This document shows positions 60,253 to 64,000 of a stretch of DNA of 64,000 nucleotides, piece by piece. Numbering within the stretch: the stretch's first letter is position 1; each line of letters opens with the position of its first letter. The notes beneath the pieces were generated by a model. That model ran no database searches, was not told where the DNA came from, and worked only from the letters and a program-made list of their open reading frames with translations. Location: positions 32,001-96,000 of the IMG/VR virus record IMGVR_UViG_3300032309_001546; one strand, 5' to 3'. The position numbers and the translations under genes were made by a program. Source of the DNA: a virus.

Positions 60253-60816
60253 CTAGTTCTCTGGGAAGATGTTTCCCAGCAGAAACTCTTGACATTCCAG
60301 TCGGGAGCTGGGCTCGTAGTAAGGAGCGAGTTCAGGATCACGGGCGTTGACCTTGGCTCTCTTGGCCTTGATCTGTTCCCTGAAATCCTGAAGTTCCTTG
60401 CTGCCCTTCTCCATGCGCATGATAGAGTCTGTCTCGTTAGTGAGGACTTCTCCCCACAACTTCAGACCCTTCTTCAACGTCTCAAGGAACACGGGAGTCA
60501 TGGATACCAGGTGAGCAATCTGGTAGAAGCAATTCTCGTGGACACTGTTCTCCAAAGAGATGCCGACATCTCTCCAGCCAGTGCCATGGTCCCAGTACAG
60601 ACCCTGGAACTCCAAGTCAACTACCTGGATGGTGTTCGGAAAACTGACCTTGAAGGTCGTATCTTCCCACCTCTTGCTCCAGGGGTCCTGTTCCTTAGCG
60701 GAGTAGAAGTTCTTCGTGCTCTTCTGGACAACCTCGATGTTCCAATCATGCTCTTCACAGATACTCTCCAGAGTCTTCTGGATGATAAAGTCAAGGACAA
60801 TGTCTTTCATGTTCAT
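60253..60816 (-). CDS. hypothetical protein
   Basis: Start MNMKDI with GGAG RBS. Confidence 0.7.
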   Translation of the reverse strand: MNMKDIVLDFIIQKTLESICEEHDWNIEVVQKSTKNFYSAKEQDPWSKRWEDTTFKVSFPNTIQVVDLEFQGLYWDHGTGWRDVGISLENSVHENCFYQIAHLVSMTPVFLETLKKGLKLWGEVLTNETDSIMRMEKGSKELQDFREQIKAKRAKVNARDPELAPYYEPSSRLECQEFLLGNIFPEN

Positions 60817-61061
60817 TCTCCAGTAAAGAGGTAACATTACCTCTGAGGTTATAAAAAGTGCTCCAGTTTACAGACATGGAGCAAGGTCACGGGACACCAT
60901 TATTTGTGCTCCCCTATACTAGGCTGTTTCTCACCTAGTAATTCAATCATATGGGAATCGAACCCATAACTAGATATCCATAATGGTATATCTAGCGTCA
61001 CCAGACTAATCAAAAGGGTACGGGTCGTCTTATTTGCTAGCGTGCGAACCCCTTCCCAGTC

Positions 61062-61266
61062 GTTACTAGCGAACTAGTAACCACCCCATGTCTATATAAC
61101 TACTAGGGCAGGGGTCCCTAATAATTAGCCCATGTTTACTCTCATTACTCGCGGCAGGGCTCCGCCAGTAATAAACCCTATGTTTATCTCGTTACTAGAA
61201 GCAAGGGACTAACTAGTAACCACCCCGTGTTCATCTTGTCCATTAGTGGCTGAGGCCCACTAACAG
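61062..61266 (-). ncRNA. tandem array of four H-type pseudoknots plus terminal UUCG hairpin
   Basis: 44-49 nt period, covarying P1 and P2, G-U pairs on minus strand. Confidence 0.7.
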
Positions 61267-61470
61267 CCAGCCTATCTTTATAGCCAGGTTTGCAACCCTG
61301 ACACCCCTAGGTTTCCATGAACGGTAGGCGCGTTCATGTGTTTCTAGAAGGATTAGAAGGTGACGTCTTGCAGTACGAACAATAGGGTTTACATCCCCTA
61401 CTATTCGCAATGTAACCTGCGTGACGCCGTAAACTTGTGAGCATTTTATAGACCTACTCAGGTCTGAGGA

Positions 61471-61677
61471 TTACACGAAGAAGCGACGAGCCACGTGAAC
61501 GGCCTCAATGAGAGACTCAGAACCAGTGCTGGCATCTTCCTCGTATTCCTCGAAATCGACAAACTCTTCAGGACTGTCCGGGCGATGGCTCCAGTCGATG
61601 CGGTCAATGACCTCATCTTCGCTACCGACAGGAATGTTGAAGCAATCCTCAAAAGACACGAACTCAACAGGGACCAT
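61471..61677 (-). CDS. small very acidic protein (possible DNA mimic)
   Basis: GGAG RBS; D/E-rich. Confidence 0.6.
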   Translation of the reverse strand: MVPVEFVSFEDCFNIPVGSEDEVIDRIDWSHRPDSPEEFVDFEEYEEDASTGSESLIEAVHVARRFFV

Positions 61678-61726
61678 GACAGACTCCGTTTGTTACGAAG
61701 ACACACATAATGTCTTCACCATGAAA

Positions 61727-61743
61727 GGCGAGCGCAGCGAGCC
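61727..61743 (+). repeat. GGC-GA-GC-GCA-GC-GA-GCC hairpin motif
   Basis: Same as 62195..62211; flanks CATG(A/T)(A/G)A and TAATA shared. Confidence 0.85.
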
Positions 61744-61800: not shown

Positions 61801-62190
61801 CTATCTCTCTATCTCGCATTAGGACACTAGCAGGGTCACTACTAGTTACGAGTCTATCAGCCCAAGAGGAGGCTTATCCAAATCGTAATGCGGAATTGGC
61901 AACCGCACCTGTCTACTTACACTAGAACCCGACAGGCCCTTTCTAGTGCTTTGATACCCGACAACTACTGGTGTGGTATCTACTGGAGTCTTGAGCCCAG
62001 TCTACTCTCCTCCTGGGTACGCCTAACTAGGCTCACCATGCTCCCCCGAGGTTGGGAACATGGGTACGGGGCGCGTAACTGCCCCTTCCCAGTTTTTATG
62101 TTAAGCGGACTGGGAACCGCCCCTGTCTGATACATACCAGAAGCCGACAGGCCTCATCTGGTACGAGTAGCGGTAGCTACTATCCGCCAT
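61801..62190 (-). ncRNA. candidate structured ncRNA with duplicated double-pseudoknot module
   Basis: No minus-strand ORF; many hairpins; two modules with covarying stems. Confidence 0.6.
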
Positions 62191-62194
62191 GTGA

Positions 62195-62211
62195 GGCGAG
62201 CGCAGCGAGCC
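62195..62211 (+). repeat. GGC-GA-GC-GCA-GC-GA-GCC hairpin motif
   Basis: Exact copy of 61727..61743. Confidence 0.85.
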
Positions 62212-62364
62212 TAATAGAATCCTATTACCTGGACTCTGTCTGGCCATACTAGTAATGCAACTATTTTTGGCCGACCCTAGTAAAGGGGTTTCCCCCCGAG
62301 TAGGGGGGTTTCGTGGGGGTAAAAAAGTTCCCCTCCCACACTGTAAGTGTGAGAGGGGGGTTCT

Positions 62365-62844
62365 CTAGTCCCAGTCGCCAGCAACAGGGGCGGACTTGCG
62401 GGCGGCAGGCTTGGCGGCGGGCTTGGCAGGCCTCGCGGGAGCCTTGGCAGCGGGCTTGGCGGGTGCCTTGGCGGGCTCCTCGACAACACCGTGACGACGC
62501 ATAAGCGCCTTCTCGGTGGCCAAGAGACGAATCTGGGCCTTGCTGTACACGATGAGCCTGGTGGCGTTGTGCCAGGCCTTGTCATCGCTCTGCCAGGACT
62601 CCGTCTCGAGGCCTGCCCCGTCGATGTGCACGAAATTGTACCCGCTCTCGTCCGCCTTTGCGACGAACCAGTTCACGAGCTCCTGGCCGACCAGACGCAC
62701 CCGCGTCCAGTTGGTGTCCTCCGTCCCGTAGGACGAACTGACCGAGAAGTCCGCGTACTTTCCGCTGGCCCCGATCACGGGCTGCTTGCCCATGTAGCCG
62801 AAGCCCGAGACCTTGAGGGTGAGAAACTTGCGATTCTGTTCCAT
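62365..62844 (-). CDS. SSB-like OB-fold protein with PAK-rich linker and acidic tail
   Basis: GYMGKQP, FSVSSS, TNWTRVRLVG, LETESW; start MEQNRK with GGAG RBS. Confidence 0.7.
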   Translation of the reverse strand: MEQNRKFLTLKVSGFGYMGKQPVIGASGKYADFSVSSSYGTEDTNWTRVRLVGQELVNWFVAKADESGYNFVHIDGAGLETESWQSDDKAWHNATRLIVYSKAQIRLLATEKALMRRHGVVEEPAKAPAKPAAKAPARPAKPAAKPAARKSAPVAGDWD

Positions 62845-62889
62845 TGACGTTCTCCGTGGTAAGTGAGCCAAAGGCGGCTCATCATGAAA

Positions 62890-63088
62890 GGCGAGCGCAG
62901 CGATGCCTGTGCTGCGGCGTTGTTGCTGTTGCCTGCGTAGCGCAGCGGAGCAGGCTGTGTTGCTACCTGCGGAGCGCAGCGAAGCAGGGTAACCACGTAG
63001 CGCAGCGGAGTGGTGTGTCCTGTGGTTCTGATGAGCGTAGCGCAGCGGAGTGAATCAGAGGCGAGGACTCGGCGCAGCCCAGCGGAGT
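62890..63088 (+). repeat. cluster of six GC-GCA-GC capped hairpins
   Basis: Units at 62890, 62931, 62966, 62992, 63028, 63071. Confidence 0.9.
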
Positions 63089-63169
63089 ATCTGGACTTTT
63101 TTACGACTATTTGTACTATTTTTGTATTATAGAAAGAATAGCCCATTGCTGGGCTACTCAATCTAATGG

Positions 63170-63940
63170 CTACTTCTTACCCGTGATACGGTTAAGACGT
63201 GCCGCGACACCGGCCTTCTTCTCCGAGGGAGCAGGGGCGGGCTTCTCTTCAGCCTCAACCTCGGCGTCGAAGTCATTGGGATCGATGAAGATAATCTTCA
63301 GGCCCGACTCTTCAGCGTAATCAACCGCATTCTTTGTACCGCCAGTGCTGCCATCCCAGACAGCAATGACGATATCGGCGCAGTCAATCATCTGCATGTT
63401 ACGGCGCTGCATGCAGAACTTGTCTTCGCCATAGGTCTTCTCGCTGACCTGGACGACTTCGCTGGCAACTTCCAGCATGTTCCAGTAGCGCTGCTTGGCT
63501 TCGCGGGGCCACATAGCCTCCTGCTCTACACAGGGGATCATGACCGTGAACGGGATACCCATCTCGTGCGCAATCTCTGCCGCATCCTGGTCAACGCCAA
63601 GGGCACCGCCAGTGATTAGCCAGAGCTTCTCACCGTGCTTGGCAAGACCACGCTCAAGCTGAGCCGCAATCTGTTCACGTACCCAGATGCGCTTCTCCGC
63701 ATTGGGATTGTATCCGCCGATCTTGTCGGGACGGTGACCAGTGAAGGCCACAAAGAAGTACTCCGTCTCTTCGGCTTCAACTTCCTCAGTTGCAGCCGCG
63801 ATCTTAACCTTGAAGGGATCGACATACAGCATACCGGGCTTGTAGTCTGCATACCCTTCGGGGCGGTTGTTGTGGGTAGACTTCGCGCCCGCAGGAGGAT
63901 TCGGCAGAGTGCTGACATCCCGCTTCTGGATGTAAAGCAT
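63170..63940 (-). CDS. SLOG-superfamily protein (YspA/DUF1273-like)
   Basis: AFTGHRP, TGGALGVDQ, RRNMQMID, AVWDGSTGGT. Confidence 0.85.
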   Translation of the reverse strand: MLYIQKRDVSTLPNPPAGAKSTHNNRPEGYADYKPGMLYVDPFKVKIAAATEEVEAEETEYFFVAFTGHRPDKIGGYNPNAEKRIWVREQIAAQLERGLAKHGEKLWLITGGALGVDQDAAEIAHEMGIPFTVMIPCVEQEAMWPREAKQRYWNMLEVASEVVQVSEKTYGEDKFCMQRRNMQMIDCADIVIAVWDGSTGGTKNAVDYAEESGLKIIFIDPNDFDAEVEAEEKPAPAPSEKKAGVAARLNRITGKK

Positions 63941-64000
63941 TACTCCATCAAGTCGGGCTTCGTCATACCAGGCTTGAGGGCCCTTCTGGCGGATCTGCCA

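Follow-up and report, generated by a model that had tools for sequence, protein, structure and literature searches.

The four tandem pseudoknots encoded on the minus strand of this phage DNA form, as sequence comparison with related loci indicates, one optional module in an uncatalogued non-coding RNA of about 550 bases, which also comprises a structured 5′ domain, a leader pseudoknot, and a tRNA-like element. The reading that we favor for the RNA as a whole, with a probability of roughly 0.4, is that of a stable RNA freed by tRNA-processing enzymes and binding several copies of one protein; this reading, release as well as protein binding, is a best guess that we infer. A preliminary description of the locus was right about the units but missed their setting as an optional module in a larger RNA with a tRNA-like end. 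Its fallback proposal, a new class of repeat ncRNA, is supported, the pseudoknot units being genuine, conserved, and without a counterpart in Rfam.

The analyzed stretch of DNA (the window), 64,000 nt in length, corresponds to bases 32001–96000 of a 145.9-kb IMG/VR virus record, which is 84% complete. All long ORFs of the window are located on the minus strand. The genes of the phage include those for a DnaE-type polymerase, a ribonucleotide reductase, and seven tRNAs (the latter identified with ARAGORN). The G+C content, about 38–40% over the greater part of the window, reaches 58% at the right end (62001–64000). The polymerase had at most 31% identity to that of any deposited phage, and no similarity to deposited phages was detected by DNA, in near and distant searches, or by protein downstream of the RNA. 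IMG/VR relatives with 91–96% identical polymerases are represented by records of 174–176 kb, one of them with terminal repeats. All homologues of the RNA come from one narrow clade of uncultured freshwater (lake) phages of ~174 kb.

Homologous loci were reached via the DnaE polymerase, a 19–25-nt anchor at the 3′ end of the tRNA-like element, and homologues of a 194-aa ORF located after the RNA. The comparison set consisted of about a dozen distinct locus versions with 26 distinct pseudoknot units. A first query of viral contigs with the 194-aa ORF gave no relatives, its homologues coming from later searches; a GTP-binding-domain ORF used as a query for relatives gave weak unrelated matches only, and a palindromic hairpin pattern gave 114 chance matches. 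Four of eleven metagenome pattern matches (L145, L149, L150, and L151) were rejected as chance occurrences in unrelated DNA.

Four consecutive units, 45, 46, 48, and 44 nt in length, were found on the minus strand at positions 61266–61083, each next unit starting 0–2 nt after the previous one. Every unit consisted of a 10–12-bp hairpin (P1) with a C-rich loop of 7 nt, a linker that is rich in purines and has ACAY at its end (10–13 nt in the window units and 9–14 nt over all units compared), and a 5-nt partner, GGGSU. The consensus over units was A-S-C-C-C-U-G for the loop and RACAU for the linker end, with loop bases 1 to 4–5 pairing with GGGSU (P2). Unit 1 (61222–61266, minus strand) has a P1 of 10 bp, the loop GCCUCAG, the linker end ACAC, and the partner GGGGU, while in unit 2 (61175–61220, minus strand), a P1 of 8+2 bp is combined with the loop UCCCUUG, the linker GAGAUAAACAU, and the partner AGGGU. 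The P1 of unit 3 (61127–61174, minus strand) is 12 bp long with one G-G mismatch, its loop being AGCCCUG and its partner GGGCU; that of unit 4 (61083–61126, minus strand) is 11 bp long with two G-U pairs, with the loop ACCCCUG and the partner GGGGU. The array is followed by a capping hairpin, GUUACUAG-UUCG-CUAGUAAC (61062–61081, minus strand), a plain hairpin with no pseudoknot partner, which is likewise present after the last unit in L012, L147, L282, L290, and L294. Across the window and its relatives, unit length was 44–50 nt, and the stems have a common TTACTAG/CTAGTAA theme. Pairwise identity among the four window units was 53–74%; TRF reported 1.9–2.4 copies with 76–80% matches for the array.

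Folded singly, the units of the minus strand formed P1 with the 7-nt loop and a free tail at −10.5 to −16 kcal/mol, whereas plus-strand folding weakened the stems or led to their loss or replacement. Stability in comparison with shuffles was not significant (z-scores of −0.5 to −2.4 for the units and −1.27 for the whole array), and the minimum-energy fold of the whole array was no stabler than that of shuffles and did not recover the units. Thermodynamics alone is therefore uninformative here, and the support for the fold comes from comparison. The loop lengths relative to P1 and P2 (0–1 nt before P2, 2 nt after P2, and a linker of 9–14 nt across a P1 of 10–12 bp) were judged feasible for an H-type pseudoknot from general pseudoknot geometry.

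The pairing statistics are counts of alignment cells and not of independent events, since the phages are close kin from one narrow clade and many units are paralogues: in an alignment of 16 units with the pseudoknot written in, 95.0% of the pairs were standard, compared to 87.5% in shuffles, none of 500 of which reached the observed value, and for all 26 distinct units, held-out and divergent ones included, 94.8% of cells paired, compared to 86.2% (0 of 500). Cells changed on both sides numbered 43 in the 26 units against 13.5 in shuffles, and sliding the partners by 1–3 columns reduced pairing to 32–58%. P1 cells were paired in 95.7% of cases, with double changes at five of ten pairs, and P2 cells in 93.1%, with double changes at two of five pairs. 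The second P2 pair (15:51) is C-G in 13 units, G-C in nine, and G-U or U-G in two; the last P2 pair is U-A in place of C-G once, in unit 2 of the window. Canonical pairs occupied 89 of 95 P2 cells, the mean after permuting partners among units being 79.1 (sd 2.4), and the observed value was reached in none of 20000 permutations. Loops matched their own 3′ partners in 51 of 55 cells and the neighboring upstream partners in 44 of 55.

A covariance model, R1, was built from P1 alone, with unit 4 left out of the building. Units 1, 2, and 3 scored 57.1, 55.3, and 59.6 bits, respectively, and the model detected the held-out unit 4 (E 5.7e-8) as well as more divergent units. According to searches with R1 and with motifs, the units are confined to one locus per genome and were found nowhere else in the 146-kb record. 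The 216 P1 pairs included 30 G-U and no A-C pairs; together with the weaker folds of the plus strand and the location of all genes on the minus strand, this identifies the minus strand as the RNA strand. We conclude from these comparisons that the H-type pseudoknot fold of the units is real and conserved, both helices having been kept in evolution.

Most of what the preliminary description had read from the units held. The tandem array of four H-type pseudoknots was placed at the right coordinates, and its fold is backed by the covariation tests; the four loop/partner pairs given (GCCUC/GGGGU, CCCU/AGGG, AGCCC/GGGCU, and ACCCC/GGGGU) are exact, and the purine-rich linkers ending in ACAU or ACAC are seen in the window units. 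The minus-strand repeat of 44–49 nt compares with measured unit lengths of 44–48 nt. The P1 hairpin is present, but its length is 10–12 bp instead of 8–11 bp. The claimed covariation of loops and partners was borne out for P2 by shuffles, slides, and partner permutation, and the claim that P1 sequences differ and keep pairing with G-U wobbles by the 30 G-U pairs among 216 and the 95.7% of paired P1 cells. Thus, the covariation of both helices, on which the description had made its proposal depend, was found against shuffle and slide controls.

Within the clade, the whole RNA measures 270–710 nt, and its modules are arranged in the order of 5′ domain, leader pseudoknot, array, capping hairpin, junction module, and tRNA-like element, followed by a terminator in the window phage. 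The 5′ domain (61358–61433, minus strand), as predicted by RNAalifold, consists of a closing helix, an inner helix, and a long hairpin. The leader pseudoknot (61267–61352, minus strand) is composed of an outer helix, a hairpin A, the loop of which (GCCUA) pairs with a downstream UAGGC, and a hairpin B, CAGGGUUGCAAACCUGG, located within the linker; it has the design of the units plus the outer helix and the second hairpin inside the linker. For the 5′ domain and the leader together, RNAalifold predicted 46 pairs from eight variants, 18 of them with compensatory changes, and the loop–partner match of the leader was read from the sequence in each variant. The leader module is present twice in G003, G002, and L148. 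In L133 (G002; about 1340–1450) and L290 (about 2285–2370), an insertion of ~85–110 nt replaces hairpin B of one leader pseudoknot. The junction module ACUGGGAAGGGG...CCCGUACCCUU (61014–61060, minus strand) is located between the array and the tRNA-like element. A palindrome, GCUGCAGC (e.g., GGUCUGCUGCAGCGGGCC), was observed directly 5′ of the tRNA-like element in L131, L132, L144, L133, L286, and L294; relatives bearing it are without the ACUGGGAAGGGG junction module.

The 3′ part of the RNA folds with a z-score of −4.96. A terminator-like hairpin, GCUCCA-11 nt-UGGAGC followed by ACUUUUUAU (60851–60882, minus strand), was recognized by sequence reading and in the minimum-energy fold; a simple terminator scan missed it due to the scan's loop limit of 8 nt. 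This terminator is absent from G003, G004, G002, L012, L144, L282, and L290, where a ribosome-binding site (RBS) and a gene directly follow the tRNA-like element. Each frame of every variant contained 4–23 stops across the region; the region is therefore non-coding, and a coding reading was ruled out.

The number of units varied: four were found in the window, two in L012, one plus three in G003, one plus two in G002 and L148, and a single one in G004, L282, L286, and L290. L147 has four units between two tRNA-like elements, while in L294 one plus two units are arranged around a tRNA-like element. No canonical unit is present in L144; the core RNA, whatever its function, can thus do without the units. 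These comparisons point to a constant core (5′ domain, leader, and tRNA-like element) and to the units as an expandable cassette of 0–4 copies. In G004, L012, L144, and L290, a separate terminator closes the upstream gene, and the RNA appears to have a start of its own; in several relatives, a hairpin-type motif lies ahead of the RNA.

The tRNA-like element, 72 nt in length (60942–61013, minus strand), has an acceptor stem of 7 bp (U1-A72, U2-G71, and G3-U70 being its first pairs), A73, a D-loop-like segment GUCUGGUGAC without a D stem, and a 6-bp T stem with the loop UUCGAUU, which gives a 13-bp acceptor/T stack. Its 3′ tail is UUAC and not CCA, and its central hairpin varies from 29 to 150 nt across versions. 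Twelve distinct versions were tabulated from the window, L012, L131, L132, L133, L147, L148, L282, L286, L290, and L294: G3-U70 was present in 11 and A73 in all 12, U1-A72 and U2-G71 were kept alongside them, and pairs 4:69 and 6:67 covaried. The first tRNA-like element of L294, a paralogue, has a fully Watson–Crick acceptor stem with A3-U70. These conserved features make up the set of alanine identity elements that tRNA-Ala and tmRNA carry. ARAGORN identified no tRNA or tmRNA at this element or in seven related loci, and no tRNA or tmRNA family of Rfam matched the element; elsewhere in the window, seven tRNAs were found by ARAGORN and six by Rfam. A canonical tRNA was rejected, as there is no D arm, the central arm is 29–150 nt long, and both searches were negative at the site. 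Membership in tmRNA was rejected as well: besides the negative searches, there is no tag reading frame, and the pseudoknots are located 5′ of a complete element. In G004 and L147, an insertion of 150 nt in the central arm has its own T-arm-like hairpin, AAGGGUUCAAUCCCCUU.

A 19-nt motif, aggctcgctgcgctcgcct, occurs twice in identical form (62212–62194 and 61743–61725, minus strand), each time just upstream of a transcription unit; the copy at 61725–61743 lies ahead of a 68-aa ORF and the RNA. In relatives, a like motif, GGCCTCCTKCGTCGGCC, was found ~70 nt before the 5′ domain of the RNA, after a terminator. aggctcgctgcgctcgcct is a candidate phage-specific promoter. The 68-aa ORF (61471–61677, minus strand; from the ORF list) is very acidic and lies directly upstream of the RNA. 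Its whole or partial homologues were found by tblastn upstream of the RNA in all related loci, parts of this ORF being the most constant protein neighbor of the RNA; it is modular, and relatives have its N-terminal or C-terminal third in common. The 194-aa ORF (60253–60837, minus strand) lies after the terminator and is not part of the RNA. Neither ORF matched a Pfam, PHROG, or PADLOC family; for the 194-aa ORF, a profile search against PDB sequences was also empty, and the AlphaFold model (pLDDT 52) was too poor for a fold search. This ORF adjoins the RNA only in some relatives, G002, G003, G004, and L012 not being among them.

A second ORF-free structured unit was observed at 62190–61765 (minus strand), with the aggctcgctgcgctcgcct copy at 62212–62194 ahead of it and a strong terminator (61800–61765) at its end. 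It has a ACUGGGAAGGGG...CCCGUACCC module (about 62093–62060) in common with the junction before the tRNA-like element, and its 3′ end (about 61845–61790) contains a unit-like hairpin followed by GCGAGAUAGAGAGAUAGAA.

We analyzed whether the array belongs to type III antitoxins, the repeats of which are 31–62 nt long and present in 1.9–5.6 copies, the array being followed by a terminator and then the toxin gene (PMC3401426). ToxI and pseudo-ToxI repeats differ at single positions, pseudo-ToxI closely resembling ToxI, and the copy number of pseudo-ToxI repeats changes in escape mutants of phage phiTE (PMC3475682). Unit lengths of 44–50 nt and a copy number of four (0–4 in relatives) are inside the published ranges. 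Near-identical direct repeats, a type III trait, were not found, since the units are 53–74% identical. ToxN (PF13958) was absent from four related genomes, three of which are complete, and no recognizable endoribonuclease toxin gene follows the array and terminator: the 194-aa ORF has no toxin-family match and is not a constant neighbor. Rfam 15 searched at gathering thresholds over the whole window yielded tRNAs only, and over the RNA region at E up to 10 yielded four chance-level matches with no antitoxin family among them; GOLLD, ROOL, and other catalogued large phage-associated RNAs of Rfam 15 gave no covariance-model match. An exact-motif scan of 185,579 prokaryote species, insensitive by its nature and covering one genome per species, returned at least 120 single matches; as for a bacterial look-alike array, none of the matches listed was tandem, and none had more than six contiguous stem pairs flanking the loop.

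Thus, the diverged units, the lack of an Rfam match, the absence of ToxN, and the inconstant neighbor lead us to reject membership in the type III antitoxin RNAs (ToxI/CptI/TenpI), with which only unit size and number agree. The toxin-less type III-like array suggested in the preliminary description keeps its size and copy number, but repeat identity, Rfam, ToxN, and the neighboring gene speak against it, and the Rfam search for ToxI, CptI, and TenpI that it had recommended gave no antitoxin family even at E up to 10. Its statement that no toxin ORF is adjacent agrees with the downstream 194-aa ORF, which matches no toxin family.

RNase P and 3′ tRNA-end-processing nucleases recognize structures of a tRNA-like kind. 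Excision of the RNA from early transcripts is proposed on the grounds that an element of this kind lies at the RNA boundary and punctuates the modules in L147 and L294: RNase P would cut at the 5′ side of the element and a 3′ tRNA-end-processing nuclease at its other side, and the RNA would be freed from its neighbors early in infection. Compact pseudoknots stacking end to end would give the RNA a long lifetime. Since every P2 directly adjoins the P1 that follows, the units can stack into a continuous rod; compact triplex pseudoknots, for their part, typically combine an A-rich linker with a P1 that has G-C pairs at its top. Bases kept in at least 90% of the 26 units are UG at loop positions 6–7, the GG/CC top of P1, and CAU before P2. 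Since the unpaired UG and CAU are conserved across paralogues, each unit may offer the same binding surface (multivalent display) and would show identical conserved loop and linker bases to several copies of one protein. The RNA would then act as a sponge, a decoy, or a scaffold of a phage ribonucleoprotein, and for the array itself, a decoy or sponge role is possible. The conserved unpaired bases might instead make tertiary contacts within the fold, e.g., A-minor triples.

A purely cis-acting role is rather unlikely. The stacked pseudoknots would serve as armor that blocks exoribonucleases or as a leader that shapes the processing of early transcripts, with no partner in trans, and would shield either the upstream message or the 3′ end that RNase P leaves behind. 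The array does lie on one strand between an ORF and the tRNA-like element, and the RBS and gene directly after this element in the seven relatives without the terminator (G003, G004, G002, L012, L144, L282, and L290) fit a cis-acting leader equally well; tandem pseudoknots before a tRNA-like cut site recall, in architecture only, MALAT1-mascRNA and tandem exonuclease-resistant RNAs, and a purely physical barrier easily tolerates a changing unit number. However, the RNA is not a 3′ UTR in G004, L012, L144, and L290, where the upstream gene has its own terminator, the flanking genes vary among relatives, and the strong conservation of loop and linker across paralogues exceeds the needs of a barrier. 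We regard as improbable a new counter-defence device in which the duplicable, stackable pseudoknot cassette, released via an alanine-type tRNA mimic, would titrate a host RNA-binding immune effector, such as a type III-like endoribonuclease or some other protein that senses RNA or targets tRNAs, with the number of units tuned by an arms race. A type III antitoxin mimic whose units would imitate the antitoxin of a host ToxIN, CptIN, or TenpIN-like system and soak up the endoribonuclease like phiTE pseudo-ToxI, is very unlikely. The units, each a pseudoknot, are 44–50 nt long in 1–4 copies, within the 31–62 nt and 1.9–5.6 copies known (PMC3401426), the copy number shifts between close relatives as in phiTE escape mutants (PMC3475682), the A-rich linker with RACAU at its end might serve as a site for nuclease cleavage, and the RNA is located in the early region. 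Such mimicry is opposed by unit identities of 53–74% versus single-position differences between ToxI and pseudo-ToxI (PMC3475682), by the lack of an Rfam family at E up to 10, by the insensitive exact-motif scan of 185,579 species, in which the matches listed were single ones with at most six contiguous flanking pairs, and by the placement of the units in a larger conserved RNA, the core of which persists without them in L144.

It is highly improbable that an aminoacylatable tmRNA- or tRNA-Ala-like element is the functional part and the pseudoknots are accessory, as PK2–4 are in tmRNA. G3-U70 and A73 are kept (11 and 12 of 12 versions, respectively) while neighboring pairs covary, a canonical T loop accompanies a D-loop-like segment that lacks a D stem, and tmRNA too combines a tRNA-like domain with a run of pseudoknots. 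On the other hand, ARAGORN was negative here and in seven related loci, no Rfam tmRNA family matched, no tag reading frame is present, the pseudoknots lie 5′ of a complete element and not inside it, the tail is UUAC rather than CCA, and one paralogue has A3-U70. A DNA-level feature with no role for an RNA, either palindromic sites bound by proteins or intergenic repeats of the REP-like kind, is scarcely credible: the TTACTAG/CTAGTAA theme of the stems and the variable copy number would agree with it, but the 30 G-U pairs of P1, found with no A-C, would fail to pair on the other strand and would be weak in DNA, the covariation between a loop and its distal partner has no DNA-level reason, and the stems change by compensatory substitution instead of holding one sequence.

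To our knowledge, both structure and role are known for very few non-coding RNAs of phages. In the RNA analyzed here, the pseudoknot, a type of fold overlooked by ordinary folding programs, has unusually clear comparative support, and pseudoknots can evidently act as duplicable cassettes in a larger RNA bearing a tRNA-shaped handle. If the RNA is a sponge or decoy, phage–host conflict would gain an RNA tool in addition to pseudo-ToxI and RNA anti-CRISPRs; if it serves processing or stability, bacterial viruses would have in it a counterpart to MALAT1-mascRNA and to the plant-virus ends in which pseudoknots are joined to a tRNA-like structure. In both cases, probing, cryo-EM, and pull-down have a well-defined target in this RNA. 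The family is uncatalogued, being absent from Rfam 15 and without a description in the searched literature, the ~10,000 candidates of PMC10690425 standing outside this comparison; that paper presents about 10,000 unnamed candidate structured RNAs from IMG/VR and describes no tandem pseudoknot array. The building blocks, H-type pseudoknots and tRNA-like elements, are known, and similar architectures occur in plant-virus 3′ UTRs and tmRNA. VIPR/vrRNA, built of alternating GGY/NN motifs, was rejected as a candidate, these motifs being absent here.

Regarding known systems, ToxI, CptI, TenpI, and the pseudo-ToxI of phiTE (PMC3401426, PMC3475682) likewise consist of tandem pseudoknot units of ~45 nt in few copies, the copy number of ToxI-type and pseudo-ToxI arrays also varies among close relatives, and phiTE is a precedent for a phage RNA decoy. 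In contrast, the units described here are 53–74% identical and keep their structure by compensation, with no sequence or Rfam similarity found to the ToxI type; no phage toxin gene was found, and the cassette is placed in a larger RNA with a tRNA-like end. A row of stackable pseudoknots followed by a tRNA-like element is also characteristic of the 3′ UTRs of tobamoviruses and related plant viruses. The plant-virus elements have short stems and end in CCA at the 3′ termini of the genomes of eukaryotic RNA viruses, whereas our RNA, transcribed from an internal unit of a DNA phage, has 10–12-bp stems and no encoded CCA. The two are unrelated in sequence; in the Rfam search at E up to 10, the plant-virus kind gave one chance-level match (E 7.7) on the other strand. 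With tmRNA, it shares G3-U70 and A73 in a tRNA-like domain that lacks a D stem, as well as several H-type pseudoknots in one RNA, but it differs in having no tag reading frame, in pseudoknots located outside the tRNA-like domain, and in negative ARAGORN and Rfam tmRNA searches.

The species 1 and 2 RNAs of phage T4 and MALAT1-mascRNA similarly combine a structured non-coding RNA with a tRNA-shaped handle; they have no sequence or fold relation to the RNA of the window, for which we only infer processing. The T4 species 1 and 2 RNAs lie in a tRNA cluster, and tRNA-linked stable RNAs are released by tRNA-processing enzymes. Finally, sponges of the CsrB/RsmZ type are also structured RNAs that display one short conserved motif in a varying number of repeats; their CsrA sites are GGA in hairpin loops, whereas in the phage RNA the C-rich loops are engaged in pseudoknots.
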